Sequence record: OM386658.1
Source: Escherichia phage vB_EcoM_ESCO32
Reading direction: 5' to 3' (one strand)
Length of the DNA stretch: 64,000 bases
In this document: piece by piece, positions 9,429 to 45,134 of the stretch
How the letters are laid out: each line of letters begins with the position of its first letter
Numbering within the stretch: the first letter of the stretch is position 1
Notes under the pieces: generated by a model
Seen by the model: the letters and a program-made list of their open reading frames with translations, nothing else
Database searches by the model: none
Told to the model about the DNA's origin: nothing
Made by a program: the position numbers and the translations under genes

Positions 9429-9526
9429 ATAAGACTAAAATCACTTAAAAAGAACCGCTAGAGTTTGAAGGAGAAAACCATGAGCGAAAAGAGAAATTTT
9501 CTCTAGCGATTCCATTTAAATAATCT

Positions 9527-9601
9527 TGGAGCGAGTAACAGGACTTGAACCTGCACCTGGAGGGTGGAAACCTCATATGCTACCATTAACACTATACCCG
9601 C
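9527..9601 (-). tRNA. tRNA-Gly(TCC)
   Basis: Acceptor GCGGGTA/TACTCGC, anticodon loop TTTCCAC, T-arm GCAGG-TTCAAGT-CCTGT, CCA. Confidence 0.55.
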
Positions 9602-9656
9602 TTAACAATATTACTCTAACATATTATTAGCCCCTTTGTCAAGAGGCTTTTAATAT

Positions 9657-9980
9657 TTATTTTAAAATAGTAGATGCACCACGTCTATTTAGATATGCAA
9701 CCGTAAAGCTCAAATCACCTATTTCTTCAGGTTCCCACTGACCTTCTAAGCCATAACAAGAACAATGATATGCGTGTACTTCATAAAACAAAGATGTTTT
9801 CATATCATAGAAATAAACGTGAGATTCGCCTTCATAATATGCACAATCATAAGTGGCAGAAAGAATTACAATGTTATCCTTATCTAACTCTACTTCATAA
9901 TATCTTTCAACATCTTCAATATCATCAAAACCATCGAAAACATTGATATTAAAATATTTCTCTAACTCTTTTTCTGTCAC
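9657..9980 (-). CDS. hypothetical protein (Cys/Tyr-rich)
   Basis: ORF track; N-terminus trimmed to GTG after AAAGGAG because longer ORF overlaps tRNA-Thr. Confidence 0.35.
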   Translation of the reverse strand: MTEKELEKYFNINVFDGFDDIEDVERYYEVELDKDNIVILSATYDCAYYEGESHVYFYDMKTSLFYEVHAYHCSCYGLEGQWEPEEIGDLSFTVAYLNRRGASTILK

Positions 9981-10002
9981 ATACACTCCTTTAGAGTTAA
10001 AT

Positions 10003-10076
10003 TGGTGCTCCCACAAGGACTCGAACCCTGATAAGTTGCTTACAAGGCAACCGTAATAGCCGTTATACGATAGGAG
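10003..10076 (-). tRNA. tRNA-Thr(TGT)
   Basis: Acceptor GCTCCTA/TGGGAGC, anticodon arm GTTGC-CTTGTAA-GCAAC, T-arm CAGGG-TTCGAGT-CCTTG, CCA. Confidence 0.6.
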
Positions 10077-10156
10077 CAAAATATTTGCTTGGTAGGATTT
10101 GATACCTACAATTCTAGAAAATTCTAGAGGTTTCTATTAACTCTACAAGCACTATT

Positions 10157-10241
10157 TGGCGATGGATCAAGGATTTGAACCTTGCTAGAACTTTCGTTCA
10201 CGGATTAACAGTCCGTCGCCCAACCACTAGGCCAATCCATC
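10157..10241 (-). tRNA. tRNA-Asn(GTT)-like with extra long variable arm (atypical)
   Basis: Anticodon arm ACGGA-CTGTTAA-TCCGT (Asn-like), then GAAC-GAAA-GTTC extra hairpin, T-arm CAAGG-TTCAAAT-CCTTG, acceptor GATGGAT/ATCCATC, CCA. Confidence 0.4.
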
Positions 10242-10248
10242 TTTAATT

Positions 10249-10335
10249 TGGTGCAGGTAGTTGGACTCGAACCAACGAAGCCCCGAAGGGCAGGAGATTT
10301 ACAGTCTCCAGCAATTGCCGCTATGCGATACCTAC
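10249..10335 (-). tRNA. tRNA-Tyr(GTA), type II
   Basis: Acceptor GTAGGTA/TACCTGC, anticodon arm GGAGA-CTGTAAA-TCTCC, long variable arm, T-arm GTTGG-TTCGAGT-CCAAC, CCA. Confidence 0.6.
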
Positions 10336-10340
10336 GTGTT

Positions 10341-10416
10341 TGGTACATCGTGAAGGATTCGAACCTTCGACCTTGGAGTTAAAAGCCCCTTGCTCTACCA
10401 ACTAAGCTAACGATGT
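10341..10416 (-). tRNA. tRNA-Lys(TTT)
   Basis: Acceptor ACATCGT/ACGATGT, D-arm GCTT-AGTTGGTA-GAGC, anticodon loop CTTTTAA, T-arm GAAGG-TTCGAAT-CCTTC, CCA. Confidence 0.65.
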
Positions 10417-10586
10417 ATAAATTATCTTTAAAATAGCCAGTGTTCGCACCACTGACTATGAGGTATCGGTAAGATGGTGGGGGCCATCTGCCGAAAGTCT
10501 ACTCTATTAAAGTAAGATGGTTGCAGCCATCCTTCCAAAAAGTTACACCAAGCAACTAAGAGTAACAAGCTACATTAAAGATAACT

Positions 10587-10672
10587 TGGCGGTAGATGTA
10601 GGACTTGAACCTACACGCCGTTTCCGACGACAGTTTAGCAAACTGTTGTGGCTACCATTTCACCAATCTACC
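10587..10672 (-). tRNA. tRNA-Ser(GCT), type II
   Basis: Acceptor GGTAGAT/ATCTACC, anticodon arm ACAGT-TTGCTAA-ACTGT, long variable arm, T-arm GTAGG-TTCAAGT-CCTAC, CCA. Confidence 0.6.
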
Positions 10673-10680
10673 GTTCTTAA

Positions 10681-10833
10681 TTATTCAAAACAACCGGAAT
10701 CTTTTTGTTCTGTTTTTACCATACGAATATTCTTACCATCTTCAGATTGTTGAAGATTAGAATACTCATAAACAACTTTATTATTTACAATCTTAACTCC
10801 GGTAACAACCTGTCCAATAGTTTTATAATTCAT
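10681..10833 (-). CDS. hypothetical small protein (about 50 aa)
   Basis: ORF track trimmed to internal ATG (MNYKTIGQ...) preceded by AGGAGC; sits between tRNA genes. Confidence 0.3.
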   Translation of the reverse strand: MNYKTIGQVVTGVKIVNNKVVYEYSNLQQSEDGKNIRMVKTEQKDSGCFE

Positions 10834-10851
10834 AAAGCTCCTAAGAGAATT

Positions 10852-10941
10852 TGGAGGAAGATAATGGAGTCGAACCATCACCGTATCGCTACAATGGGCC
10901 AGGGTTCAAACCTGGTTGCGCACCGCTGCGCCCTACCTTCC
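10852..10941 (-). tRNA. tRNA-Ser(TGA), type II
   Basis: Acceptor GGAAGGT/ATCTTCC, anticodon arm CCAGG-TTTGAAC-CCTGG, long variable arm, T-arm GATGG-TTCGACT-CCATT, CCA. Confidence 0.55.
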
Positions 10942-11004
10942 TGTTACCATACTTTAAATCTAACATAAAACTATCTTGCTTGTCAAGTAGTTTTTAAAAC
11001 TTTT

Positions 11005-11086
11005 TGGCCGGGGTGACAGGATTCGAACCTGCATACTCCAATTACTCGGTTAACGCCTGATTAGAAGTCAGGTGAGATACACCCCG
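11005..11086 (-). tRNA. tRNA-Arg(TCT)-like element with atypical architecture
   Basis: Acceptor CGGGGTG/CACCCCG, anticodon arm CCTGA-CTTCTAA-TCAGG, T-arm GCAGG-TTCGAAT-CCTGT, CCA; but only 5 nt where the D-arm should be and a 23-nt segment between anticodon and T arms. Confidence 0.35.
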
Positions 11087-11267
11087 TTTTCATAATGACT
11101 ATAACAAAAAACTAAGTAAATGTCAAGATATTTTTTACTAAAATTACTATTTAAATTGAAGCCTAGTTATGGAATCGAACCATATTTCGTATTTAGTTAG
11201 ACAAAGCGGTCTAACATATTTTTCAGGCTTTGATGGCCTCGGAATTACCAAATACCCTACTAGGTGT

Positions 11268-11353
11268 TGGTGCAAGTGGAGGGATTCGAACCCTCAAGCA
11301 TTTAAGCGTTGCGTTTTAAGCACAATGTGTATCACCAATTCCACCACACTTGC
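11268..11353 (-). tRNA. tRNA-Leu(TAA), type II
   Basis: Acceptor GCAAGTG/CACTTGC, anticodon arm TTGTG-CTTAAAA-CGCAA, long variable arm, T-arm GAGGG-TTCGAAT-CCCTC, CCA. Confidence 0.6.
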
Positions 11354-11384
11354 ATATAGGAGATGCATAGCACCTCCTTTTAAA

Positions 11385-11460
11385 TGGTGGTTCCCCAGGG
11401 TTACAATCCCTGCCCTCGACACTTATGAGGTGTGCGCTCTCGTCAGTGAGCTATGGAACC
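11385..11460 (-). tRNA. tRNA (CAT anticodon; Met or Ile2) with non-canonical T-loop
   Basis: Acceptor GGTTCCA/GGGAACC, D-arm GCTC-ACTGACGA-GAGC, anticodon loop CTCATAA, T-arm CAGGG-ATTGTAA-CCCTG (no TTC), CCA. Confidence 0.45.
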
Positions 11461-12205: not shown

Positions 12206-13939
12206 TTAGTCAACCTGGATGGTTCCCATAGTACGAAGAACCTCTACATCAACACGGTTGCGGATATCAGTAAATGTTTCATCACGTCCTTCTACTTGTG
12301 GTGTAATAACCGTACCATCCCTGAAGATAACTTTTAACTCATTGTCTTCATCTTGGATATCTTTAAAAGAAAGATTATCCACAAGAGAAAGTTTACCGTT
12401 TGTATCCTTAACAACCTTAATAAAACCTTTTGCAGAGCGTTTACCAGGATCAGTTTTAGGCTCCTTACTTACCAAAATTTCGTGTTCACCGATGATACTA
12501 CCTGTTGCTTTAACAGCAAAACCAAAAGTATCTCGTGTATTGAACTGATAAGTATAACTACCAACACCAAATACAATATTGGAAGCTGCAAAACCTTTCT
12601 TCTTCAGTCGGCGTAAGATCTCGTGTTCTCGTTCAACAGTAATAGAATCACCATAAATCATACCGATGTGCTGATCAAGAACCTTGTAGCCTTTTCGGTT
12701 GATAGTACCACCAAACACTTCCCAAAGGATTTGAATAGAACCTACTGCTTCACAATAAGGAATCTCATAAGTTTCATCAATACAATCAGCAACACTGCAA
12801 TCCTGAAGAACATTGTAATACTTATTAACATCAGCCAAATGAACTACTTCAGTGGCTGTAGCAATACCATTATTTAAAAGGTCTTCATAGTTATCAAAAG
12901 ATTCAACATTGTATCCTGCAACAACTTTAACCGGATCTCCTGAATCTGGACGAATAACAAGACGACCATTTCGTGACATAATGGACTCTTTCAATTCTAC
13001 CAGAATGCGAGTCAAGACAGCCCAGTAATCATAAGAATCTGCTACATATGAACAAAAACCTTCTGGAACAATTTCTTCAATATAGCGGCGAAGAAACTCT
13101 TTCTCTGCTACATAACGAAGCCCATCAACATCATCTTTAAGATGTGGGAAATGTTTCTTCAGATCTTCAACAATAGCTCCAATGTTAGTCGTTGCTACTG
13201 AATGTTCTGTTGCCGGAATAGAACCTGCAACAAATTGATCATAATCAATACCATAGTAATCATGCACAGTTTCAATAGCCAGAATATTATCTGTTCCTGT
13301 GAAAGATGCCAAATGAGCGATACCACTCTTATAACCATCTTCGATATTGCTTAAGCCACGTAGACTAAAGTCATGACACTGGAAATTAACGTGATCAATG
13401 TTATCACACGTTGCCATCGCATACGCCATAGCGATACGCTTATACTGAAAAGCTGCTGTGGCATTAGTCATTGTCTTCCAAGTTTCATCTGACAAGAGTG
13501 TTTCCACATAGTTAGTTAACCAAAAGAATTTTTCTAAAGTGTTATGCACAGTAAACACAGGAACACCAATAGGACACAAAACACCTTCTGGCAGAGATCG
13601 AACTTCTAGCGGAAGATAACCTAAGTCGTGCAATTCTCCCCAACATTCAGCAGAAGGAGCAGAAGCACCTAATGCATTTTTAGACATACGGTAAAATTTA
13701 TTTACTGCTGCACTACGAGACATTTTAAAGAAGCTATCCCACATAGTTACAAGAGCATCAGTAACTGCTCGACGAATACCTAAAACAATTACACCACGTG
13801 CTTCACGATCTGCATAGTGTGCAAAGTTTTTATCATTACGAGGAGTTAAATTAGAGAAAATGAGTTTTGTATTTTGGTTGTACATCTGCTTGTGACCAGG
13901 CTTATACCAATCAGTAGCAAAAGGTGCAAAAATATTCAT
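12206..13939 (-). CDS. nicotinamide phosphoribosyltransferase-like enzyme (NAMPT family; Namat-type of phage NAD+ reconstitution pathway)
   Basis: 577 aa, NAMPT-like length and composition; immediately downstream of PRPP-synthetase-like gene, the arrangement described for phage NARP1. Confidence 0.75.
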   Translation of the reverse strand: MNIFAPFATDWYKPGHKQMYNQNTKLIFSNLTPRNDKNFAHYADREARGVIVLGIRRAVTDALVTMWDSFFKMSRSAAVNKFYRMSKNALGASAPSAECWGELHDLGYLPLEVRSLPEGVLCPIGVPVFTVHNTLEKFFWLTNYVETLLSDETWKTMTNATAAFQYKRIAMAYAMATCDNIDHVNFQCHDFSLRGLSNIEDGYKSGIAHLASFTGTDNILAIETVHDYYGIDYDQFVAGSIPATEHSVATTNIGAIVEDLKKHFPHLKDDVDGLRYVAEKEFLRRYIEEIVPEGFCSYVADSYDYWAVLTRILVELKESIMSRNGRLVIRPDSGDPVKVVAGYNVESFDNYEDLLNNGIATATEVVHLADVNKYYNVLQDCSVADCIDETYEIPYCEAVGSIQILWEVFGGTINRKGYKVLDQHIGMIYGDSITVEREHEILRRLKKKGFAASNIVFGVGSYTYQFNTRDTFGFAVKATGSIIGEHEILVSKEPKTDPGKRSAKGFIKVVKDTNGKLSLVDNLSFKDIQDEDNELKVIFRDGTVITPQVEGRDETFTDIRNRVDVEVLRTMGTIQVD

Positions 13940-14010
13940 AGTTATGTCTCCTTGTTTGTTAGTGTGGGAGTATCTTACTAAGCATACTCCCTATTGTCAA
14001 CACTTATTAT

Positions 14011-14904
14011 TTAAAAATTCCACACGTATGGAGATACAATTTGTTGTTGCAAATCTGACTGATTCTTAACAAGAACACCGGAATCTTCTTGGATGTTATC
14101 TTCCCACACATTAAGAGAATGAATGCAGTCAAAGTGCTCACTTAACTCTTTAAGACCTTTAGAAAAGATACCGTGTGTAACATATAACTCAATCTTACCT
14201 GCGTTACGAGCACGTAGCACTTTAGCCAATTCAATAAAAGTTCTACCGCCGTCACAGATATCATCTACGATCATCAGGTTACGCTTATTGAAATCCTGTA
14301 CAGAAATGTCTGTACGAACAATAGCACCTGTTGCAGTATCTCTAACCTTCTCTGCACAGAACACATCTAAAGACATTTTCTTAGATAATTTAAATATTTT
14401 CTTAAGAGCACCACCATCAGGACTAACAAGAGCAAAATTCTCCATACGTAACTTCCACTTTAAAGTTTCGTAAGCAATCTCTTCTTGAGGTATTACACAG
14501 AGTCTGTCAAACACTGCTGGAGTAACATCACTATGTGGATCAGCAACGATAACACGTGAGAAATTTAATGAATTAATTATAGAAGCAAATGCTTTAACTC
14601 CGAATGCTTCCCCAGGTTCACACACTCTGTCTTGTCGTGCATATGGCACATACAACATGAGCAAATCAACACAATATGGTTTATGATATAGCATATTGTC
14701 CAATGCATTCTTAGTCATAACCAAAGTCATCAAGTCTTTAGCAGATCTTACTTCTAAAGAGAGTAAGATTCTGTCTGTAGCATGATTGAAACCTGATAGA
14801 TTCGTGTCTAGTTGAACATGTTGTTCTCCACCAGAGAACGTAAAGACTTTAACGTCTACATCAGTAACATAACAGTCAACACCATGTAGAATACTAACTT
14901 TCAT
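14011..14904 (-). CDS. ribose-phosphate pyrophosphokinase-like enzyme (Prs family; Adps-type of phage NAD+ reconstitution pathway)
   Basis: 297 aa; Prs-like motifs VSPDGGALKK and MIVDDICDGGRT (PRPP-binding loop); adjacent to NAMPT-like gene. Confidence 0.75.
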   Translation of the reverse strand: MKVSILHGVDCYVTDVDVKVFTFSGGEQHVQLDTNLSGFNHATDRILLSLEVRSAKDLMTLVMTKNALDNMLYHKPYCVDLLMLYVPYARQDRVCEPGEAFGVKAFASIINSLNFSRVIVADPHSDVTPAVFDRLCVIPQEEIAYETLKWKLRMENFALVSPDGGALKKIFKLSKKMSLDVFCAEKVRDTATGAIVRTDISVQDFNKRNLMIVDDICDGGRTFIELAKVLRARNAGKIELYVTHGIFSKGLKELSEHFDCIHSLNVWEDNIQEDSGVLVKNQSDLQQQIVSPYVWNF

Positions 14905-15324
14905 TGTTTATCTCCTTAGTTGAGTTAGGACTTTATGTTCTCTACTCTACATACAGATAGATCTAAAGTCAATAGATATTTATTATTTAATTTATTATTT
15001 AATTAATAATAAAATTAATAAAGAATCTATTGTTAGTATAGAGTATGTATGTTAGTATTATAGACATAACATAGTGCTATATGTAGACTACTCAGTTGTC
15101 TGTTAGATCATGTATCACAAGATTAGATAACACCCCTCGCTGCGCTCGGCGTTTTTCGGGGGTTAGGGTAGCATACTTTTTTGCGTTTGTCAACACCTTT
15201 TTAGATTATTTTTAAGTACAACCTAAACCTCCTAAAAACGATTGTAACGAGTTTTACTGTGAGGTAAGGTGATTGCATATCTTAAAGGCCATTAGCTCGT
15301 TACAGAGCTATACAGGAGGGAATA

Positions 15325-16757: not shown

Positions 16758-16948
16758 TGTTCCTTATTTATTCAGGTAAAGCCAAATACATGCAAGGTGT
16801 AAAGCGTGTAGAAGTAGTAGATACTGTAACTATAGGAAAATCCTTTATTCTTTATCTGTTTTATGTCAATGGAGAAAGATTTGCTGTTTCTAAGCAATTG
16901 GTAGATAAAGGTAAAACTTGGAAAGAAGAGAAACAGGAAGGGGGTTGA
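16757..16948 (+). CDS. hypothetical protein
   Basis: ORF track. Confidence 0.3.
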   Translation: MFLIYSGKAKYMQGVKRVEVVDTVTIGKSFILYLFYVNGERFAVSKQLVDKGKTWKEEKQEGG

Positions 16949-17292
16949 TAGTGGCTAAAATTCTTTGGTTAGACGATTTAAGAGATCCTAAAGATTATGG
17001 TTATGAGGATGCCATTTGGTTAAAATCTTTTGGGGATTGGTCATCTTTTGTTTCAGATGAAGATAATTTCAATAATATCTCAGAAATACACTTCGATAAT
17101 GATCTTGGGGAAGATCAAGAAGGCTATCATGCGTTCTTAGATGTAGAATGTATGTTGTACGCTGGTGAATGGGATGCTCTTAAAACTATCTATGTTCATA
17201 CATCAAATCCTTCTGCTGCTGGTAAATATATGTTAGCTAAGGAAAATTTTATTGCATCCTATGGTGTTGAAATTAAACGTGTTAACTATTAA
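16918..17292 (+). CDS. hypothetical protein
   Basis: ORF track; true start may be downstream. Confidence 0.3.
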   Translation: MERRETGRGLIVAKILWLDDLRDPKDYGYEDAIWLKSFGDWSSFVSDEDNFNNISEIHFDNDLGEDQEGYHAFLDVECMLYAGEWDALKTIYVHTSNPSAAGKYMLAKENFIASYGVEIKRVNY

Positions 17293-17447
17293 GTAGGTAT
17301 TATGCATTACTCAGTCTGGTCAGAGCAAGAAGAGGATGAAGGGCATTTTATCTATAGAGAGGAAGAAAATTGGAGCGATACGAGTAATGATCTTTTACTT
17401 CCTGATTACAGTTTTTTCGCTGATAGACTAAAAGAGTATGGAGAAAA

Positions 17448-17810
17448 TTGATGTGCGCTACTAATCAACATGATATTTGTTACCAACCTCTCACTTGGAT
17501 TGGTGAGGATCACTATGCTCAACGTGTTATAGTCTGCGCTGCGAACAAGTATATTCTTAACAATGGCGAAGAGTTAATTATTCCTTGTGTTAGGCATGCA
17601 AATCCTGTACTATCTGCACAACTTAATGTTTTAAAAGATGCAGGATTGATCGATAAACTGTTTTGCTTACCTGATAATCAAGGGTTTATTGATCAGTATT
17701 ATAACTGGTGGAGTCGCAAAGATGCTTATGTCATTGCAGATAACGCCAAACAAATTAACTACGAAAGAAATGGTCACAACAGTGAACTATTCAGCGAGGG
17801 ATTATACTAA
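17448..17810 (+). CDS. hypothetical protein (Cys-containing)
   Basis: ORF track. Confidence 0.3.
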   Translation: MMCATNQHDICYQPLTWIGEDHYAQRVIVCAANKYILNNGEELIIPCVRHANPVLSAQLNVLKDAGLIDKLFCLPDNQGFIDQYYNWWSRKDAYVIADNAKQINYERNGHNSELFSEGLY

Positions 17811-18361
17811 TGTTTATTACAAGTGATTTGCATTTTATGCACAAACGTATCCGAGAGTTTGCTCCTGAATATCGCCCGTGGGAAGATATGGAGCATATGA
17901 CAGAAGCACTGATCGAAGCATGGAATAAATGTGCCACAACACCAGGAGTAAAGATGTACCATCTTGGGGACTTCTGTTTCGGGACTGAAGAAGATACCCG
18001 TAAGATTGCTTCCCGTCTCCAAGGGGATATTACTTACTGTGTTGGGAACCATGATTACAGTAAACACAGAAAAGTGCTTGCAGAGTATGGAGAAGTTGTG
18101 TATTATGACGAAGTGAAATATCAGAAGCTGTTCTTCGTCTTAAGTCATTACCCTATGGCTGCCTGGAATAAACAAGGGCATGGATCAATCATGCTACATG
18201 GACACTCTCACGGATCATTTCCTGATCATTTGTATGGGAAAATGTTGGATGTTGGTTGGGATGCACACGGGAAAATCTTGCATTTTGACGAAATCATCTC
18301 TATTATGGATAAGCGTGATATTATTGTTGTAGATCATCATAAGATAATCAAAGGAGATTAA
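17810..18361 (+). CDS. calcineurin-like metallophosphoesterase (putative RNA-end phosphatase of repair cassette)
   Basis: Motifs SDLHFMH, HLGDFCFG, GNHDY, HGHSH characteristic of metallophosphoesterases; directly upstream of RNA ligase and kinase. Confidence 0.6.
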   Translation: MFITSDLHFMHKRIREFAPEYRPWEDMEHMTEALIEAWNKCATTPGVKMYHLGDFCFGTEEDTRKIASRLQGDITYCVGNHDYSKHRKVLAEYGEVVYYDEVKYQKLFFVLSHYPMAAWNKQGHGSIMLHGHSHGSFPDHLYGKMLDVGWDAHGKILHFDEIISIMDKRDIIVVDHHKIIKGD

Positions 18362-18362
18362 T

Positions 18363-19295
18363 GTGGCTAAGTTCAATTGTGATGACCTGATTGCAAAAGG
18401 TTTAGTGCATAAAAAAGAAGTTAAGTCTGGAGAGTATGCTGGTCTTGCTGTACTTAAATACAAAAACAATGTATTCTGGGATAACTTGTGGAACGTTGAC
18501 AAACGACTTTTAGATTGTCGTGGGTTGGTTGTTGACTCAGAAGATAATATTGTTATTTGGCCTTTTACTAAAATCTTTAATCGTTTTGAGAATGGTACAG
18601 ATCTTCCAGGAGATGAATTTGTAGATGCTGTCCGTAAAGTAAATGGTTTTATGGCATCTGTAGGTGTGTACAAAGGGCAACTTGTTGTATCAACAACAGG
18701 GAGCCTAGAGTCAGACTTTGCAACTATTGCCAAGAACCGTATTGTTTCCGAGTGTGATGACATAGAGTATTTCATTAAGTGGACAGAAAGTGCAAAAGCA
18801 ACTTTCCTTTTTGAAATCTGTGATCCTTCTGATCCACATGTTGTCGAAGAAGAACCAGGCGCATACTTAATTGGAGCAAGAATTCAAAATCTTGATGGGA
18901 CAAGTTTCATGTTACCTGAAGGTGTTCTTGATGGGATTGCATCTATTACAAAGTTTAAACGTCCTGAAGTTTATCCGATGATTAAATTTTCAGATGTTGT
19001 TGAAATGTCTAAACATTGTAAACACGAAGGGTTTGTTGTTCGTGAAACAAACTACCCGTTTAACTTACTGTTAAAGATTAAGTCACCATACTATCTTGCT
19101 AAAAAATTCCTTATGCGTGGTGGCAATAAGAAGTGGGATATGATTTGGGACAACCCAAACAATGCTAAACAAATTGTTGACGAAGAATATTATACTTTGC
19201 TAGAATGGCTTCGAAACAACTTTACTAAGACTCAATGGGCTGCTTTAGATCCACAAGAGCGACGTAAAGAAATAGAAAACTTCTTTGGAGGCTAA
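18363..19295 (+). CDS. RNA ligase, T4 Rnl1-like
   Basis: GTG start; blocks DCRGLVV, WPFTKIFNRFEN, RKVNGFMAS (motif I with Asn in place of Asp), EGFVVR, LLLKIKSPYY align by eye with T4 RnlA motifs. Confidence 0.65.
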   Translation: MAKFNCDDLIAKGLVHKKEVKSGEYAGLAVLKYKNNVFWDNLWNVDKRLLDCRGLVVDSEDNIVIWPFTKIFNRFENGTDLPGDEFVDAVRKVNGFMASVGVYKGQLVVSTTGSLESDFATIAKNRIVSECDDIEYFIKWTESAKATFLFEICDPSDPHVVEEEPGAYLIGARIQNLDGTSFMLPEGVLDGIASITKFKRPEVYPMIKFSDVVEMSKHCKHEGFVVRETNYPFNLLLKIKSPYYLAKKFLMRGGNKKWDMIWDNPNNAKQIVDEEYYTLLEWLRNNFTKTQWAALDPQERRKEIENFFGG

Positions 19296-19700
19296 ATGAA
19301 ACAACTTATCATCTTACGTGGTGTTTCAGGTGCAGGTAAATCTACAGTAGCAGAAATTATTTCTGAAGGTTATTGGCCTATCTGTGAGGCAGATCAATAT
19401 CATTACACAGAAAGTGGTGTTTACGATTGGAAGCCAGAGAATGTAGGTAAAGCACACGCATGGTGTCAGAGTATTGTTCGTGATGCTATGGCATCTAATA
19501 TTAAAAAGATTATTGTCTCTAACACTTCAACCACAGAGAAAGAACTTAAACCTTATTTAACTCTTGCTGAAGAGTTTGGTTATCAAGTTATCTCTTTAGT
19601 AGTTGAAAATAGGCACGGTAACGACTCAATTCATGAGGTTCCACAACATATCCGTGATCAGCAAGAGAAACGTCTTCGCAGTTCACTTAAGCTACAATAA
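19296..19700 (+). CDS. polynucleotide 5'-kinase (T4 Pnk kinase-domain-like, P-loop)
   Basis: Walker A GVSGAGKST; VVSNTSTTEKELKPYLTLAEEFGYQV resembles T4 Pnk kinase domain. Confidence 0.6.
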   Translation: MKQLIILRGVSGAGKSTVAEIISEGYWPICEADQYHYTESGVYDWKPENVGKAHAWCQSIVRDAMASNIKKIIVSNTSTTEKELKPYLTLAEEFGYQVISLVVENRHGNDSIHEVPQHIRDQQEKRLRSSLKLQ

Positions 19701-21754: not shown

Positions 21755-22477
21755 ATGATCGAGAATTTTTTCAAACAAGTAAAAGTGGACAATAGCTTCT
21801 TTATCAAAGCTGCCGATCAAATTGTTGCTTGGAATGCTAAGGCACGTGGTGGAGTAACCCCAGAATTTACTCAAGAGATGTTTGAAGCTCAACTTTCTTT
21901 TGTACGAGAAGAACTTAAAGAGTTTCAAGCAGCAGCACAGGAAAATGATCACGTTGAATTACTTGATGCAGCAGCAGATATTTTTGTGGTAGCATCCTAC
22001 CTGGCATTTATGTTCTTTGGTAAAGAAGGTGTTGATAAAGCTCTGGAAATGCCAACAGGAGATGTTCTGGCAGAGAACATTTACGATGTTATCATTGAAT
22101 TTGATAAAATGGTAGAAAATGACTTGCAATTTGCCTTAATGTCTCTTACACTTACCCGTATGGCACGAGATACTTTGGTGCGTTCTGTTTATAACGAGAA
22201 GAAGGTTATGCGTGAAGTGTTGAATAGCAATGAGTCCAAGTATCCTACCAAGAAGCAACTCCTGGCTATTTGGGAAACTAAGGATATTATTGAAGCTCTT
22301 GAAAAAGAGTGCGATGCTATCGAGATGCGAAGCAAAGATCGTGCAGAAGGTTCTTATACTGGGGTACATGCTGTATATAACGAAGTTCAAAAGGTATACG
22401 TATTCTTTGATGACAAAGGTAAAATTATGAAACCATCTACCTTTGTTAAACCTAATATCGCAGCAATCATTGCTTAA
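21755..22477 (+). CDS. MazG-like all-alpha nucleoside triphosphate pyrophosphohydrolase (putative)
   Basis: EExxE...D-type motif: VREELKEFQAAAQEN...ELLDAAADIFVVASYLA. Confidence 0.5.
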   Translation: MIENFFKQVKVDNSFFIKAADQIVAWNAKARGGVTPEFTQEMFEAQLSFVREELKEFQAAAQENDHVELLDAAADIFVVASYLAFMFFGKEGVDKALEMPTGDVLAENIYDVIIEFDKMVENDLQFALMSLTLTRMARDTLVRSVYNEKKVMREVLNSNESKYPTKKQLLAIWETKDIIEALEKECDAIEMRSKDRAEGSYTGVHAVYNEVQKVYVFFDDKGKIMKPSTFVKPNIAAIIA

Positions 22478-34770: not shown

Positions 34771-34968
34771 ATGATGCTAGATCAACTGATCAATGCTCCT
34801 CGCGTAACAGTAAGTCCAAAAACATTTGCATCACTTTTAGAAGATGCTAAAGAGGTTTATAACTTTACTGAAGAAGAGCTTCCTGTTCCTGTTGAAAAAG
34901 GTTCCAGATGGTTGTTTTATGAAGGTATTATTTTTACTGAAGGGAATAATTGGAAGGAGACTAAATGA
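34771..34968 (+). CDS. hypothetical protein
   Basis: Internal ATG after AAGGAGG. Confidence 0.3.
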   Translation: MMLDQLINAPRVTVSPKTFASLLEDAKEVYNFTEEELPVPVEKGSRWLFYEGIIFTEGNNWKETK

Positions 34969-35954
34969 AATACTTAGTAACAGGTGGTTTAGGCTTTATT
35001 GGAAGTGCGGTAGTTCGTTTCCTGGCTAAAAATACTAAGAACGATATTTACGTTATAGATAAATGGGGTTACGCTTCAGATCCTAGAAATTTAGCAGAAA
35101 CACCTAATGTAAAGTTTTGTCGTGTTGACTTGACAAATGCGCAGGTAACTGCTAAGATTGTGGCAGATGTTAATCCAGATTATATAATGCATCTTGCAGC
35201 AGAAAGTCACGTAGATAATTCAATAGCATCACCGAGTGTTTTTATAAATTCAAATATTGTTGGGACATTTAATCTTCTAGAAGCTGTTCGTTTAATGGGA
35301 GATAAATCAAATCTTAAAATGTTCCATCATATTTCAACAGATGAAGTGTATGGTGATCTGGAAGAAGGGGATTATCCGTTTACAGAACAGAATCCTTATA
35401 AGCCAAGTAGTCCATATGCTGCATCTAAGGCAGCAAGCGATCATTTGGTAAGAGCGTGGCATCGTACTTATGGTATTCCGACAGTTATAACAAATTGTTC
35501 AAATAATTTTGGAGCATATCATCATCCAGAAAAACTAATACCTAAAACGATAACAAATATCTTGATGCATAAACCAATCCCTGTTTATGGCAATGGTCTT
35601 CAAGTAAGAGATTGGTTATACGTTGACGATCACGCAGAAGCATTACACCTAGTAGTAACTAAAGGCAAATCTGGAGAAACATATAATATTGGGAGCAGAA
35701 ACCCTAGAACTAATATTGATGTAATCTATATGATTTGTGATTATATGGATGCGGTGTATCCATCTGAAACAGATGCTTGTAGCCTCATTGAGATGGTTAC
35801 AGATAGACCTGGACATGATTTAAGATATGAAGTGAATCCTTATAAGATTGAAAAGGAATTAGGGTGGAAAGCTAAAGGCACATTTGAAGAAAAACTTTAT
35901 TCAACCATTGATTGGTATGTAGATAACAAAGAGTGGTGGGAAAATAAAGTTTAA
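34965..35954 (+). CDS. rmlB: dTDP-glucose 4,6-dehydratase
   Basis: SDR fold: [10 protein letters not shown] Rossmann motif, YAASK catalytic YxxxK, typical length 329 aa. Confidence 0.85.
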
Positions 35955-35962
35955 GGAGGAGT

Positions 35963-36832
35963 ATGAAAGGTATTATCTTAGCAGGTGGTAGTGGAACAAG
36001 ACTTTACCCAGTTACTAAAGGGGTTAGTAAACAACTATTACCAATTTATGATAAGCCTATGATTTATTATCCGCTCTCTGTCCTAATGCTTTCTGGAATT
36101 AGGGAAATACTAATAATTACAACACCAGAAGATCAAATTAATTTTGTAAATCTTCTAGGTGATGGTTCTTCTTTTGGTATTTCCCTACAGTATGCAATAC
36201 AGGATAGCCCAAAAGGTTTAGCAGAAGCGTTTATTATTGGTGAGAACTTTATTGGTGAAGATTCTGTAGCACTTGTGCTAGGTGATAATTTATTCTTTGG
36301 TCAGAGTTTTGGTAGCATTTTAGATTCTGCTAAAGAACATATTGAAAAGAATGGTGGAGCTAATATTTTTGGGTATCACGTAAATGATCCTGAAAGATTT
36401 GGTGTTGTTGAGTTTGATTCTGAAGGTACAGTGGTGAGTATTGAAGAAAAACCAAAAGCACCAAAAAGCAACTACGCAATCACAGGCTTGTACTTTTACG
36501 ATAATTCTGTTATACAGAAAGCTAAGAGCGTTAAACCTTCTGCTAGAGGGGAGTTAGAGATTACAGATATAAATGAGATGTACTGGAAAGAAAAGACTTT
36601 ACGTGTCTGTAAACTAGGAAGAGGTTTCACTTGGCTGGATACAGGAACACATGAAAGTCTTATGGAAGCATCTCAATTTGTTCATGCAATAGAAAAGCAA
36701 CAAGGTATGAAGGTTGCATGCCTGGAAGAGATTGCTTTTAAAAATGAATGGATTACTTTAGACTCTGTAAAAAGTTCTGGAGAGGTTTTAAGTAAAACAG
36801 ACTACGGTAAGTATTTACTTAAATTAAAATAA
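35963..36832 (+). CDS. rmlA: glucose-1-phosphate thymidylyltransferase
   Basis: N-terminal [14 protein letters not shown] nucleotidyltransferase signature; 289 aa. Confidence 0.85.
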
Positions 36833-36844
36833 AGGGGGAATTAA

Positions 36845-37399
36845 ATGATTCAAGCAACAAAAATCGAAGATTTGTTGATCATTCAACCTGACGTTTACGG
36901 AGATGAACGTGGCTTTTTCTTAGAAAGTTTTAATCAGGCTTTATATGATCAATACATAGGTAAACAAAACTTTGTCCAAGATAACCATTCACGTTCTATT
37001 CGAGGAGTTCTACGTGGGCTTCATTTTCAAAAGAAAAACCCACAAGGGAAGTTAGTACGTTGTGTTCGTGGTGAAGTTTATGATGTTGCTGTAGATATTA
37101 GGGTTGGTAGTCCAACATTTGGAGAATGGGTAGGTGTTCTCTTATCTGAAAAGAATAAAACACAATTTTGGATTCCTCCTGGTTTCGCTCATGGCTTTGT
37201 TGTGATTAGTGACATTGCTGATTTTGAATATAAATGTACAGAATATTACGATCCGACTTCAGAGTGTAGTCTTGCGTGGAATGATCCAGATATCAATATT
37301 GATTGGGGTTTTGATTTAATCTTTAATGATATTAATTTTAAACCTATCTTGTCACAAAAAGATCAGGAAGCCAAAACACTAAAGGAGATCATATTTTGA
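36845..37399 (+). CDS. rmlC: dTDP-4-dehydrorhamnose 3,5-epimerase
   Basis: 184 aa cupin; DERGFFLE and HFQK motifs typical of RmlC. Confidence 0.8.
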   Translation: MIQATKIEDLLIIQPDVYGDERGFFLESFNQALYDQYIGKQNFVQDNHSRSIRGVLRGLHFQKKNPQGKLVRCVRGEVYDVAVDIRVGSPTFGEWVGVLLSEKNKTQFWIPPGFAHGFVVISDIADFEYKCTEYYDPTSECSLAWNDPDINIDWGFDLIFNDINFKPILSQKDQEAKTLKEIIF

Positions 37400-38226
37400 C
37401 AAAATTTTTAATCTTTGGTTCAAAAGGTCAATTAGGACAATCTTTGGCAAAAGTTGCACCAGAAGATGTTATTTTGATTGAAGCAAGTGATATAGACATT
37501 ACCAACTTTAAAGATGTTATGAATAGTCTTGTACAGCACGTGCCTGATGTTGTTGTGAATTGTGCGGCTTACACGGCAGTAGATAAAGCTGAAGAAGATG
37601 TTAACACCTGTATAAATGTTAATGCATACGGTGCAACAAACATTGCCAAAGCATGTAATGATTTACTGATACAGTTTGTACATATTTCAACAGACTATGT
37701 TTTTGATGGGCATGTTGCTGGCACAGAAGATAGTAAAACAAACCCCTTGAACACCTACGGTTACAGTAAACAATTAGGTGAAACTTTAGTACAAACAGTT
37801 TGTCCTACAGCACTTACTATCAGAACAGCTTCTGTTTATAGTGAATTTGGACATAACTTTTTGAAAACTATGTTGGAACGCTACAACGGTGGTCAAAAAG
37901 AATTTAATGTAGTATGTGATCATTTGTCGTGTCCTACTTATGCACCTGATCTTGCAGAAACAATTTTTAAACTTGTAAAAGATGGTGTAAATAGTAAAAT
38001 TGTACACTATGCAGGTGCAGATTATATTTCTTGGTATGATTTTGCACGAAAGATATTTCTTGTTATAGATTTATCTGTTACAGTTAATCCTGTATCTGCT
38101 TCAACCTATAATTCCAAAGCAGTCAGACCAGCAACATCTTATTTAAAAACAGATCCTACTTTAAATCCGCGAAGTGTTGATAGCGGTATTGTAAGAACTT
38201 TAACTATACTTTTAAACAAGGAGTGA
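37396..38226 (+). CDS. rmlD: dTDP-4-dehydrorhamnose reductase
   Basis: 276 aa SDR; GSKGQLG N-terminus, YGYSK catalytic motif; completes RmlB-A-C-D set. Confidence 0.75.
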   Translation: MTKFLIFGSKGQLGQSLAKVAPEDVILIEASDIDITNFKDVMNSLVQHVPDVVVNCAAYTAVDKAEEDVNTCINVNAYGATNIAKACNDLLIQFVHISTDYVFDGHVAGTEDSKTNPLNTYGYSKQLGETLVQTVCPTALTIRTASVYSEFGHNFLKTMLERYNGGQKEFNVVCDHLSCPTYAPDLAETIFKLVKDGVNSKIVHYAGADYISWYDFARKIFLVIDLSVTVNPVSASTYNSKAVRPATSYLKTDPTLNPRSVDSGIVRTLTILLNKE

Positions 38227-42594: not shown

Positions 42595-43257
42595 ATGAAG
42601 TTTGTACTGTATCATCGACTTTCTAAGAAGAAACAACAAGGCAACCAGTATGGTATAGAATCACAGGAAGCAGATATCCAACGCTTCCTGGATTCACAAG
42701 AAAATTATACTATTGTAGGTAGCTTTGCAGAGTTTTATTCTGGTAAAGGCGATTGGAAGCAACGTAGAGAGCTTGTAAAAGCTGTTAATCTTTGCAAAGA
42801 AACAGGTGCTACACTTGTTGTTGCTAAGGTTGACCGTCTGGGACGTAACACAGCTTCTGTTGCAACCTTGTTAGAGATGATTAATGTACGGATAGCAACT
42901 ATGCCCTCCGCTGAAAATATGATAATAAATATTTTAGCAGTTCTGGCAGAAGAAGAGGCTCGTGCAATATCTGATCGTGTTAAGAAGAGCCTTAAGGTAG
43001 CAAAAGCGAAGGGAACGCTTCTTGGTGCAGCAAACCCTAAATACAAAAGAACAGATTATACGAAAACGGAAGAAGCAAAACGCTCAAGAGAGTTTGCGCT
43101 TTCTTTAAAAGATTCTTTAGTTGCATACAGAGCTTGTAAAACGCCATATATGACGATTGCAAAGCATCTGAATGAATCAGGAAAGAGAACTATTCGTGGG
43201 AGTTTGTTCGATGCCAAAGCGGTACAACGTCTTTGTGCAAAATTGAATATTAAATAA
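42595..43257 (+). CDS. serine recombinase (resolvase/invertase family)
   Basis: N-terminal YHRLSKKKQ (catalytic Ser context), GATLVVAKVDRLGRN signature, E-helix region, C-terminal HTH-like tail. Confidence 0.6.
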   Translation: MKFVLYHRLSKKKQQGNQYGIESQEADIQRFLDSQENYTIVGSFAEFYSGKGDWKQRRELVKAVNLCKETGATLVVAKVDRLGRNTASVATLLEMINVRIATMPSAENMIINILAVLAEEEARAISDRVKKSLKVAKAKGTLLGAANPKYKRTDYTKTEEAKRSREFALSLKDSLVAYRACKTPYMTIAKHLNESGKRTIRGSLFDAKAVQRLCAKLNIK

Positions 43258-44064: not shown

Positions 44065-44391
44065 ATGAAAATAACGACAGAACAGGCTTTAATAGACAAA
44101 GGAAGGGAAATCTTAGAAAGTCATTTGGAGGATATTCAAAGGACTCCAGGGTATCTCGGCTGGCGTATACAAGAAGCCGTCGATTTTCTACCCCGTAAAA
44201 ATAAAGAGATTGAAGTAAGATCTCTATTCCTCCTTGTTAAAGTAGATGGTGACGCTATATACAAAGATGTAGCGTCTCACATTGAACAAATAGAAGAAAA
44301 AGCCTACAAAGAATTTGCAGATCTTGTTGTAGAACATAATATAGAAGGTAAAGTTAATATCTTTATACTTATGGATTTTGAGGAGAGTTGA
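44065..44391 (+). CDS. hypothetical protein
   Basis: ORF track. Confidence 0.3.
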   Translation: MKITTEQALIDKGREILESHLEDIQRTPGYLGWRIQEAVDFLPRKNKEIEVRSLFLLVKVDGDAIYKDVASHIEQIEEKAYKEFADLVVEHNIEGKVNIFILMDFEES

Positions 44392-45134
44392 TGTTAGTAT
44401 ATCAAGAAATTAGTGTAAAAGATGATCAAGACCTGTTTATTATTGGTGATTTACATGGTTGCTTTGATTTGTATCAGAAGGGTGTTAATACTTTAGGTAT
44501 CCGAGATCAAGATGTTGTTGTATCTTTAGGAGATCTTACAGATCGCGGCAAGCAGAATTTTCGTTGTGTTGTTGAATTCACCAGAAAGCTAAATCGTTAT
44601 GGTATTCGTGGAAATCATGAAGATATGATGATTAAAGGGTTGCTAGAAGGTGATAGACGATATTACGAATGTTGGTTTCAGAACGGAGGCCATACAGTTC
44701 TAGACGAGTGTGGAGAAGAGGGTGCAACTGCTCTTGCTTTGATGCTAGAAGATTTACCTGTTGTACTTGTTGTCAATTATCGTAATATGAAACTAGGCTT
44801 TATTCACGGTGGGTATCCTTCAGTTTTGGAACATTTACCAGTAACAGAAGTTTTGCCATTTTGTTTGAATATGAATAAAGAGCAAGTTTCTCGATTCACA
44901 GAATCTTTAATGTGGGATCGTGATATGATAGATTGCGCACTTGAAGGGATTCTTCTTCCTAGGGTTTCAGGAGTAGATTATGTATTTCACGGGCATTCTT
45001 ATGTTCCTAAACCTGTAATTAGCAGTAATAGGGTATATATGGACACAGGATCTTGCTTCAATGGTAATTTAACCTTTGCATATTTTGATGATTCAAATAC
45101 GTTACAATTTTATTCTACTTTAGAGGAGGATTAA
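44388..45134 (+). CDS. Ser/Thr protein phosphatase (PPP-family metallophosphatase)
   Basis: GDLHGC, GDLTDRG, GNHE signature triad. Confidence 0.75.
   Translation: MMLVYQEISVKDDQDLFIIGDLHGCFDLYQKGVNTLGIRDQDVVVSLGDLTDRGKQNFRCVVEFTRKLNRYGIRGNHEDMMIKGLLEGDRRYYECWFQNGGHTVLDECGEEGATALALMLEDLPVVLVVNYRNMKLGFIHGGYPSVLEHLPVTEVLPFCLNMNKEQVSRFTESLMWDRDMIDCALEGILLPRVSGVDYVFHGHSYVPKPVISSNRVYMDTGSCFNGNLTFAYFDDSNTLQFYSTLEED

Follow-up and report, generated by a model that had tools for sequence, protein, structure and literature searches.

The 64-kb window analysed here, the whole 64,000 nucleotide stretch of Escherichia phage vB_EcoM_ESCO32 [GenBank: OM386658.1], is from a phi92-like E. coli myophage (Justusliebigvirus) and has ~99% identity to more than 50 deposited genomes. 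Two genes in the ORF list, both on the minus strand, together span positions 12206–14904. The 5' gene, adps (14011–14904), encodes a Prs-like protein of 297 aa that matches PHROG 619, 'ribose-phosphate pyrophosphokinase' (E = 5.3e-91), falls within the Adps clade, and is a putative ADP-ribose pyrophosphate synthetase. The second gene, namat (12206–13939), encodes a Nampt-like protein of 577 aa that matches PHROG 448, 'nicotinamide phosphoribosyl transferase' (E = 1.4e-187), and which residue mapping suggests is a nicotinamide ADP-ribose transferase. They are separated by a spacer of 71 nt (13940–14010, minus strand). A preliminary description of this DNA had reported a Prs-like gene directly upstream of a gene for a 577 aa Nampt-like protein on the same strand, which the ORFs match exactly. 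It had also noted VSPDGG and IVDDICDGGRT motifs in the Prs-family protein, and these are present from residues 160 and 212, respectively. In the public records the two genes are named 'ribose-phosphate pyrophosphokinase' and 'nicotinamide/nicotinate phosphoribosyltransferase'.

Each gene has potential expression signals 5' of its start codon. The spacer contains a promoter-like site, TTGACA-N17-TAAGAT, at 14000–13972, with 10 of 12 matches to the consensus. The leader upstream of adps (14905–14972, minus strand) contains a promoter-like site in an AT-rich stretch, TTGACT-N17-TAGAGT, at 14972–14944, which is a consensus match only. There are 21 promoter-like sites in the region against an expected 15.7 ± 4.0, a count that is not significant. 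An AAGGAG Shine-Dalgarno sequence is located 6–8 nt 5' of both start codons, at 13953–13948 for namat and at 14917–14912 for adps.

More than 50 relatives carry both genes with unbroken reading frames, and the 71 nt spacer has the same sequence in phage cardinal. Comparison of the two genes with those of this close relative revealed 28 synonymous and only 2 nonsynonymous codon differences, which suggests that the pair is under purifying selection. Chance ORFs can be excluded because of the matches to PHROG 619 and PHROG 448 and to Pfam families PF00156, PF14572, and PF04095. In Bas63 (genes 79–80), SPbetaL1 (genes 190–191), and ICP1, too, adps lies 5' of namat with a short gap between them; the published proximity criterion for NARP1 is that Adps and Namat lie within 10 genes of one another, typically with adps immediately 5' of namat.

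Is the Prs-like protein a PRPP synthetase, or is it an Adps? In a neighbour-joining tree based on Poisson distances, the split between bacterial Prs (n = 4, all class I and the only outgroup) and the phage and prophage Adps-like proteins (n = 18, including that of the window) was recovered in 300 of 300 bootstraps. The window protein scores 273 bits on an Adps HMM from which it had been left out and 74 bits on a Prs HMM, whereas E. coli Prs behaves in the opposite manner (135 and 523 bits). It passes the broad TIGR01251 model marginally, with 118.8 bits against a cut-off of 113; on this model Bas63 Adps scores 138, SPbetaL1 Adps 106, and E. coli Prs 423. It is under the cut-off of every one of the narrow NCBI Prs models by about 200–480 bits, including PRK01259 (99.6 against 297; E. 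coli Prs scores 533) and PRK00934 (98 against 296). NCBIfam contains no model specific for Adps or for Namat. Pairwise BLAST scores were set aside as a discriminator, since those of the window Adps against SPbetaL1 Adps (83 bits) and E. coli Prs (73 bits) do not separate the two families; its identity to the SPbetaL1 and Bas63 Adps is only 28–35%.

The window Adps is 40.5% identical to ICP1 Adps (157 bits), structures of which define the catalytic residues and a PP loop, C215–S220, with an F221 lid [PMC13586617]. The catalytic residues are all kept: ICP1 K185, R87, H121, D161, D212, D213, and D216 correspond to window K186, R90, H124, D163, D214, D215, and D218, with the Lys of the catalytic beta-hairpin, K186, equivalent also to SPbetaL1 K162. 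The PP loop of the window protein is C217-D-G-G-R-T-F223, a pattern that is the same in Bas63 and KN2-1, while three aligned Prs have IDTGGT(L/I). For the contacts with the adenine of ADPR, ICP1 F18 is kept as window F23, and ICP1 F92 is replaced by C95 in the window, by Met in Bas63, and by Cys in KN2-1. The TIGR01251 match ends at profile position 253 of 309, and 52 residues follow the THG motif, compared with 64–71 in Prs and 37–50 in other Adps. At the sequence level, the window Adps thus appears to be without the C-terminal alpha11-alpha12 filament/regulatory module of PRPS.

The evidence for the second enzyme is of a similar kind. Its best PDB matches are to SPbetaL1 Namat (9W5X/9W5W; 9e-118, 398 bits), with human Nampt at 2.6e-48 and 168 bits. 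The published SCH signature of Namat is GS-X-phi1-X-phi2-X-phi3-TRD, where the X at positions 3 and 7 are aromatic [PMC12774641]. Residues 460–470 of the window protein, GSYTYQFNTRD, are an exact match to this adenine-clamp motif, with Y462 and F466 at the adenine-stacking positions. At the same site, the NARP2-type Nampts used as comparators have GGGLLQQLDRD (the KVP40-like phage PVA8) and GGGLLQEVTRD (RB43). The window protein keeps D10, Y12, F191, R194, D217, A243, H246, R330, D332, G430, D431, R469, and D470, among which His246 and Arg330 are catalytic. The NAM/ribose contacts F189, R192, D215, R306, and D308 correspond to its F191, R194, D217, R330, and D332, and the phospho-His is H246.

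The SCL loop is less informative. The published rule is that its third residue is Arg, Lys, or Tyr, with the stacking residue located there or one position further along. The third residue in the window is Lys37, equivalent to Bas63 K42, followed by Asn38 as opposed to the stacking Trp43 of Bas63; Nampts also align a Lys at the third position, making it non-discriminating by sequence. The NF006629 model likewise matches Namat and Nampt alike and does not discriminate for this enzyme. Compared with SPbetaL1 Namat, the window protein contains two insertions, at residues 253–277 and about 343–399, both of which are shared with Bas63 Namat, to which it is 39.6% identical.

Taken together, the SCH motif, the placement in the Adps clade, the PP loop and catalytic Lys, the failure against the narrow Prs models, and the gene order support the NARP1 (Adps and Namat) reading put forward in the preliminary description. 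For each of these sequence discriminators, the comparison comes out for NARP1. The accompanying view, that the sequence alone cannot separate NARP1 from canonical salvage, is now out of date, as published signatures separate the two to a good approximation. The pair is therefore very probably a core NARP1 operon of a phi92-like phage that would rebuild NAD+ after host NADase defence.

The presence of NARP1 in this phage group is already known from the tables of the discovery paper itself. In Table S1 of Osterman et al., the Adps of phage alia (MN850632_00231) is identical to the window Adps, and Tables S1 and S2 label the proteins of phi92, alia, and EmilieFrey 'Namat within 10 genes: Yes' and, for Namat, 'Adps-associated' [10.1101/2024.02.11.579819]. 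We found no literature linking NARP1 experiments to phi92-like phages. The chemistry has been shown for the SPbetaL1, ICP1, and Paenibacillus homologues, and the anti-defence phenotype is known from Bas63, from FADO, and from expression of the SPbetaL1 operon. By homology, the enzymes of the window phage would be expected to share the substrate preference of their homologues, and the operon may guard this phage against NAD+-depleting defences.

The proposed pathway would begin when a host NADase defence, such as SIR2-HerA/Nezha, DSR1/2, type I Thoeris, SEFIR, or a similar system, splits NAD+ into ADP-ribose and nicotinamide. Adps would then use ATP to pyrophosphorylate ADPR on its distal ribose, at the 1'' position, generating ADPR-PP and AMP. 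Namat would replace the pyrophosphate of ADPR-PP with nicotinamide, directly generating NAD+. Such a route would need neither an NMN intermediate nor the host salvage enzymes PncC and NadR. As the operon is without Adpp, it should not rescue the phage from aRES, the product of which is ADPR-1''-phosphate.

The pair is core NARP1, and not NARP1-AP, because there is no Macro-domain phosphatase beside it. A Pfam scan of the 73 aa and 88 aa downstream ORFs and the 122 aa upstream ORF found no Macro domain (PF14519, PF01661, PF20016) within two genes; hmmscan is less sensitive than the HHpred used in the NARP1-AP paper, and the 73 aa and 88 aa ORFs are in any case too short for a Macro domain. The annotation of cardinal has two further small neighbours, one of about 36 aa on the downstream side and one of 54 aa on the upstream side, which are also far too short. 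A metallophosphoesterase encoded at 17810–18361 was considered as a possible NARP1 phosphatase and rejected, being in a divergent RNA-ligase/kinase cassette, whereas Adpp is an in-operon Macro-domain protein. Assignment of the pair to NARP2 or NARP3 is not appropriate. NARP2 has a PRPP-specific Nampt without the aromatic SCH motif and a phage Nmnat, whereas the SCH motif here is of the Namat type and no Nmnat (CTP_transf-like/Nudix) was found among about 65 ORFs scanned in the 64-kb window, from a genome of about 147 kb. NARP3 is a different gene pair, of a PnuC-like transporter and a NadR-like bifunctional enzyme, and neither NadR nor PnuC was found in the window.

Might NARP1 chemistry serve chiefly as housekeeping, recycling NAD+ used by phage or host enzymes such as a CobB-like sirtuin, instead of counter-defence? 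We consider this unlikely. The window does encode a CobB-like SIR2-family protein, at 49617–50429 (PF02146, E = 3e-22; best PDB match E. coli CobB), and PADLOC returned nothing relevant for either it or the gene pair. A KVP40-like NARP2 phage has a sirtuin homologue, as does a T5-like phage annotating a NadR-type enzyme, and many chromosomal, non-mobile copies of NARP1 have been reported, with suggested bacterial housekeeping roles [AntiDefenseFinder; PMC12774641]. However, in Bas63 infections ADPR-PP was seen only when SIR2-HerA was present and not in defence-free infected cells. Furthermore, sirtuins give O-acyl-ADPR, which has to be deacylated before it can be used by Adps, and neither a deacylating esterase nor a Macro domain was found in the scans of the window ORFs. 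Phages of several families, 983 records in all, encode the sirtuin, and only four BASEL phages carry the operon. Because only these four carry it, sirtuin-bearing BASEL Vequintavirinae such as EduardKellenberger are probably without NARP1.

A broader version, in which NARP1 is one arm of an NAD+ cycle run by the phage, with the sirtuin consuming NAD+ and Adps and Namat rebuilding it, would extend the function beyond counter-defence and is quite unlikely. Here, the non-canonical adenine-contact residues, C95 of Adps and N38 of Namat, might be signs that the range of substrates has shifted, perhaps towards ADPR derivatives other than free ADPR. Homologous sirtuins occur in single example genomes alongside NARP1 (the window), NARP2 (KVP40-like), and a NadR-type NARP3-like gene (the T5-like phage fuchur), which would suggest that phage sirtuins are coupled to NAD+ reconstitution in general.

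It is very unlikely that the genes encode a true PRPP synthetase and a true Nampt/NadV generating NMN, which host NadR, NadD, or PncC would take on to NAD+, boosting the nucleotide and NAD+ supply without recycling of ADPR. This is how the public records annotate both genes, and the matches to PF14572, PF04095, NF006629, and TIGR01251 reach or exceed the thresholds of these models. Namat homologues also retain PRPP to NMN activity in vitro, meaning that some NMN formation is possible [PMC12774641]. Yet the second protein has the Namat-specific SCH motif and is missing the GGGLLQ of the Nampt type, and the Prs-like protein belongs to the Adps clade, has a PP loop of the Adps type, and is under all of the narrow Prs cut-offs. 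The SPbetaL1 Adps data also speak against canonical salvage, with the negative control given as 'PRPP and ATP' in the running text of the paper. In addition, Bas63 overcame SIR2-HerA even when the host was mutated in both pncC and nadR, and scanning of about 65 window ORFs did not find a phage Nmnat. That the pair is a decaying or inactive remnant with no present function is scarcely credible; nothing was found in favour of this, and it is effectively refuted by the intact frames in more than 50 relatives, the retention of all catalytic residues, and the ratio of 28 synonymous to 2 nonsynonymous differences.

Recognition of this pair as a core NARP1 operon is mainly of value for correct annotation, as the names in the public records predict the wrong chemistry. 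The phi92-like phages, which are phage therapy candidates, have a very broad host range. From a core NARP1 lacking Adpp, they are predicted to resist NAD+ depletion of the SIR2-HerA, DSR, and type I Thoeris types and to stay sensitive to aRES-type defence. This prediction of host range extends the published work and is not a discovery in itself.

Among the known systems, NARP2 of Vibrio phage KVP40 (Nampt plus Nmnat/Nudix) has a second enzyme from the same Nampt superfamily as the window Namat. The KVP40-like Nampt is about 27–31% identical to it, has GGGLLQ in place of the SCH, and has no adjoining Prs-like gene. NARP1-AP (Adps-Adpp-Namat) of Vibrio phage Gary has the Adps and Namat core in common with the window [10.64898/2026.01.28.702374]; it requires an in-operon Macro-domain ADPR-1''-phosphate phosphatase, whereas the window pair is without one.

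The NARP1 of Bas63 (JohannRWettstein) comes from a phage of the same host species and has the same two-gene order and short spacer as the window [10.1101/2024.02.11.579819]. Like the window, it has the Adps PP loop DDICDGGRTF and a long Namat (593 versus 577 aa) that contains the two insertions and the SCH GSYTYQ(Y/F)xTRD. The identities are 35% for Adps and 40% for Namat, however, and Bas63 is a Felixounavirus as opposed to a Justusliebigvirus. In addition, the Bas63 operon is known from in vivo deletion and metabolite data, and that of the window from its sequence. The NARP1 of Bacillus phage SPbetaL1 (Adps WIT26982, Namat WIT26983; 9W5W/9W5X) is biochemically proven, and all of its NAM, ribose, and phosphate contacts and SCH aromatics are kept in the window. 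Unlike the window proteins, its Namat is of 491 aa, has no insertions, and uses Arg40 in the SCL, and its Adps has the PP loop DDLSSFGGTF. The closest Adps to that of the window to have been characterised in vitro is that of Vibrio phage ICP1 (UniProt F1D1Q1) [PMC13586617]. Between the ICP1 and window proteins, F92 is changed to C95, A218-A219-S220 to G-R-T, and F223 to E225, and the C-terminal tail of the window protein is ~15 residues longer, while F18, I194, V195, C215, and F221 of ICP1 Adps are also matched in the window.

The Prs-like and Nampt-like genes that the preliminary description placed on one strand at 12206-14904 have exactly those limits. The first, adps (14011-14904, minus strand), is an ORF of 297 aa (PHROG 619, 5.3e-91), and the second, namat (12206-13939, minus strand), is an ORF of 577 aa (PHROG 448, 1.4e-187); the Pfam domains across the pair are PF00156, PF14572 and PF04095. 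The genes lie head-to-tail with a 71-nt spacer, the Prs-like gene 5' in the direction of transcription, and AAGGAG precedes both start codons. The order and motifs that had been described are present, with VSPDGG at residue 160 and IVDDICDGGRT at residue 212 of the Prs-like protein. With a 4-kb query around the pair, matches of 95-99% nucleotide identity came from 55 phage records, including phi92, alia, inny, cardinal (Stephanstirmvirinae; Justusliebigvirus) and the BASEL phage EmilieFrey.

It is very likely that this pair performs the reactions of NARP1, the two-enzyme pathway that rebuilds NAD+ from ADP-ribose (ADPR) and nicotinamide. Adps would use ATP to pyrophosphorylate ADPR at its distal ribose, and Namat would couple nicotinamide with the resulting ADPR-PP to give NAD+. 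By analogy with characterised homologues, the window pair is predicted to have both these activities and an anti-defence role. In phage Bas63, deletion of the operon lowered plating on SIR2-HerA hosts about 20-fold, protection was independent of host pncC or nadR, and ADPR-PP was seen only with wild-type phage in defence-expressing cells (Osterman et al., bioRxiv 10.1101/2024.02.11.579819). A role mainly in housekeeping NAD+ recycling is compatible with the NARP1 chemistry, yet we consider it unlikely. No published experiment was found that concerned the operon in any phi92-like phage.

Pairwise scores of the window Adps (136 bits with Bas63 Adps, 83 with SPbetaL1 Adps and 73 with E. coli Prs) are ambiguous for distant members, and a wider set was therefore used, made up of 18 phage or prophage sequences and four bacterial Prs from the table of the discovery paper and from fetched loci. 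In a neighbour-joining tree the four Prs were split from all Adps-like proteins, the window protein among them, in 300 of 300 bootstraps, and the window branch fell within a Gram-negative group that holds Bas63. The window protein was left out of the Adps HMM, which gave it 273 bits, against 74 from the Prs HMM; E. coli Prs had the opposite pattern (135 and 523). With TIGR01251 the window protein scores 119 bits for a cut-off of 113 (Bas63 138, SPbetaL1 106, E. coli Prs 423), and it is below the cut-off of all the narrower curated Prs models by about 200-480 bits. The solved structure of Adps from Vibrio phage ICP1 assigned catalysis to Lys185, identified the acceptor residues and showed that the PP loop is remodelled and the C-terminal module of PRPS lost (PMC13586617). 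The window Adps is 40.5% identical to it (157 bits) and keeps K186, R90, H124, D163, D214, D215, D218, F23, I195, V196 and F223. Its PP loop reads C-D-G-G-R-T-F, as opposed to I-D-T-G-G-T-L/I in three aligned Prs, and at sequence level the PRPS C-terminal module is apparently missing. The adenine contact F92 of ICP1 differs, being Cys95 in the window and Met in Bas63.

Structures of SPbetaL1 Namat (9W5W, 9W5X) define a "selectivity clamp" made up of a loop that varies (SCL) and a helix that is conserved (SCH), the latter with the signature GS-X-phi-X-phi-X-phi-TRD, where X is aromatic (PMC12774641). We aligned the Namat proteins of the window, Bas63, SPbetaL1 and an Erwinia Vequintavirinae phage with KVP40-like and RB43 Nampts. 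The SCH region is GSYTYQFNTRD in the window, GSYTYQYMTRD in Bas63 and GSFTYQYNTRD in SPbetaL1, whereas the Nampts have GGGLLQQLDRD or GGGLLQEVTRD; the window sequence is thus an exact match to the published signature. The adenine-stacking positions are Y462 and F466, and the nicotinamide, ribose, phosphate and catalytic residues of the structure paper are all kept, including His246, Arg330 and Asp332. The SCL is less clear-cut: its third residue, Lys37, agrees with Bas63 but lies in a column where the Nampts also align Lys, and the next is Asn38 in place of the stacking Trp43 of Bas63. Against the PDB, the window Namat scores 398 bits with SPbetaL1 Namat and 168 with human Nampt. It is about 86 aa longer than the crystallised SPbetaL1 protein through insertions at residues 253-277 and about 343-399, the second immediately after the conserved RPDSGDP motif. 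Both are absent from SPbetaL1 but occur in Bas63 (593 aa, with a longer second insertion) and in the Erwinia Namat, and are therefore a mark of the Gram-negative myophage branch rather than a peculiarity of this phage. PDB entries 9ke8 and 9keo, deposited as 'nicotinamide phosphoribosyltransferase', match the window Namat at 3e-100, far better than human Nampt; their SCH region, GAQTYQRNTRD, keeps only the middle aromatic, and by sequence they look intermediate between Namat and Nampt.

Canonical salvage, with Prs making PRPP and Nampt making NMN, is what the gene labels in the matching records imply ("ribose-phosphate pyrophosphokinase" and "nicotinamide/nicotinate phosphoribosyltransferase"), and Namat can indeed make NMN from PRPP, although ADPR-PP is preferred (bioRxiv 10.1101/2024.02.11.579819). 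In the same study SPbetaL1 Adps converted ADPR and ATP to ADPR-PP with the canonical Prs-type product absent, the control substrate being ribose-5-phosphate in the legend of Fig. 2D and "PRPP and ATP" in the running text, and SPbetaL1 Namat formed NAD+ from ADPR-PP and nicotinamide. Set against characterised Adps and Namat on one side and Prs and Nampt on the other, the first window protein groups with Adps and the second carries a Namat-type SCH, and we judge canonical salvage very improbable. The SCH motif, the Adps-clade tree, the competing HMMs and the PP loop together support the NARP1 interpretation first put forward in the preliminary description. Decay of the pair can practically be dismissed: both are genuine and intact genes on which purifying selection acts, with 28 synonymous and 2 nonsynonymous codon differences from phage cardinal.

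In NARP1-AP, a Macro-domain phosphatase (Adpp) within the operon lets the pathway handle aRES defence (2026 preprint, bioRxiv 10.64898/2026.01.28.702374). No Macro domain was found in the scanned neighbours (ORFs of 73 and 88 aa downstream and one of 122 aa upstream on the other strand), and two more small neighbours outside the scan, annotated in cardinal at about 36 and 54 aa, are too short for one; the locus is therefore core NARP1 by the published criterion and, lacking Adpp, should not overcome aRES. A Pfam scan of about 65 ORFs in the 64 kb of this roughly 147-kb genome found no Nmnat, Nudix, NadR, PnuC or Macro domain, and the phage DNA ligase is ATP-dependent. NARP3, the PnuC/NadR pair, is unrelated to NARP1. 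The practical value lies in annotation correction and in the predicted defence sensitivity of phi92-like therapeutic phages.

Promoter-like sites, all minus-strand consensus matches whose total is not above shuffled expectation, are present upstream of adps (TTGACT-17-TAGAGT, 14972-14944), within the adps-namat spacer (TTGACA-17-TAAGAT, 14000-13972) and ahead of the next two small ORFs (TAAGAT-type, 12213-12185 and 11793-11764). The last three share TTGAC(A/T)-N17/18-TAAGAT with an unusual -10 hexamer, each just upstream of a minus-strand ORF, and may represent a class of early or middle promoters specific to the phage. The interval from 15800 to 11300 yielded no terminator on the minus strand. 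The minus-strand block that ends with the pair continues through small ORFs and, directly downstream, a cluster of 15 tRNA genes (8713-11460, minus strand; tRNA-Met, tRNA-Ser and tRNA-Leu each twice) to terminase, portal, protease and capsid genes. The strand switches at about 15.0-15.3 kb, beyond which early and metabolic genes form a plus-strand block. Because the mechanical ORF 9657-10079 overlaps tRNA-Thr (10003-10077), it probably starts further downstream, where the cardinal annotation places it.

Divergent from the pair is an RNA-repair-like cassette (16918-19700, plus strand) of a cREC_REC cyclic-phosphate-processing receiver domain (16918-17292, 3.9e-13), a weakly matched metallophosphoesterase (17810-18361), a T4 Rnl1-type RNA ligase (18363-19295, 5.4e-14) and an AAA_33 P-loop kinase (19296-19700). 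Because it adjoins the tRNA cluster, it probably serves tRNA repair against anticodon nucleases. Atd1, a phage (p)ppGpp pyrophosphatase of MazG-like type that dampens the toxicity of TIR effectors, is reported from Justusliebigvirus by AntiDefenseFinder. The MazG-like pyrophosphohydrolase ORF at 21755-22477 (plus strand, PF01503, 3.2e-7) is plausibly this gene, in which case the phage would have a second means of countering NADase-type defence. The dTDP-L-rhamnose pathway is complete on the plus strand at 34965-38226, with RmlB (34965-35954), RmlA (35963-36832), RmlC (36845-37399) and RmlD (37396-38226) all at Pfam E<1e-70; a 'putative dTDP glycosylation machinery' has already been mentioned for phi92-like phages (Maffei et al., PMC8594841). 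A serine recombinase/resolvase (42595-43257, plus strand, PF00239, 8.4e-22) and a C-5 cytosine DNA methyltransferase (47298-48287, plus strand, PF00145, 1.4e-43) occur in this phage, which is regarded as virulent, and a second metallophosphatase lies at 44388-45134.

The genome also encodes an NAD+-consuming enzyme, a CobB-like sirtuin of 270 aa (49617-50429, plus strand; PF02146, 3e-22; top PDB match E. coli CobB 1s5p) with the motifs GAGLSADSGIRTFR and VIHVHG and no PADLOC match. Among the 983 phage records with a homologue are a KVP40-like NARP2 phage and T5-like phages; one of the latter, fuchur, also has an annotated NadR-type adenylyltransferase and NAD-dependent DNA ligase. Phage sirtuins may be linked to NAD+ reconstitution, though the connection is so far anecdotal. 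The sirtuin is present in 25 'Campylobacter' records, and four records among the NARP1 locus matches (almost all 95-99% identical) bear the label 'Campylobacter phage' and give Campylobacter jejuni as host; host mislabelling or contamination of the deposits is probable.

PHROG 12872, a profile of 547 positions, is matched by the window Adps at 9-222 and by the window Namat at 221-536. The Shigella phage Ag3 entry FJ373894_00125 in the Osterman table reads as though an Adps N-terminus led straight into the C-terminal half of Namat, which is either a real fusion that some phages carry or the product of a frameshift or faulty annotation. Within the BASEL collection the Prs-like/Nampt-like operon was spotted "in four phages", and Bas63 served for its deletion (bioRxiv 10.1101/2024.02.11.579819). 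The phi92-like phages of that collection are Bas60-62, and the deleted Bas63 is a Felixounavirus, from which we infer that the four are these three plus Bas63. Table S1 of that paper enters phi92 FR775895_00103, alia MN850632_00231 and EmilieFrey MZ501063_00238 as "Adps homologs"; those rows that were available in full carry the flag "Namat within 10 genes: Yes", and Table S2 gives the adjacent proteins of these phages as "Adps-associated" Namat. Phage Nernie has a Namat with 100% identity to that of the window, and the window Adps, one residue off the phi92 entry, equals the alia entry over 297 of 297 residues. The finding is thus already known, down to an identical protein sequence in the supplementary table of the discovery paper.
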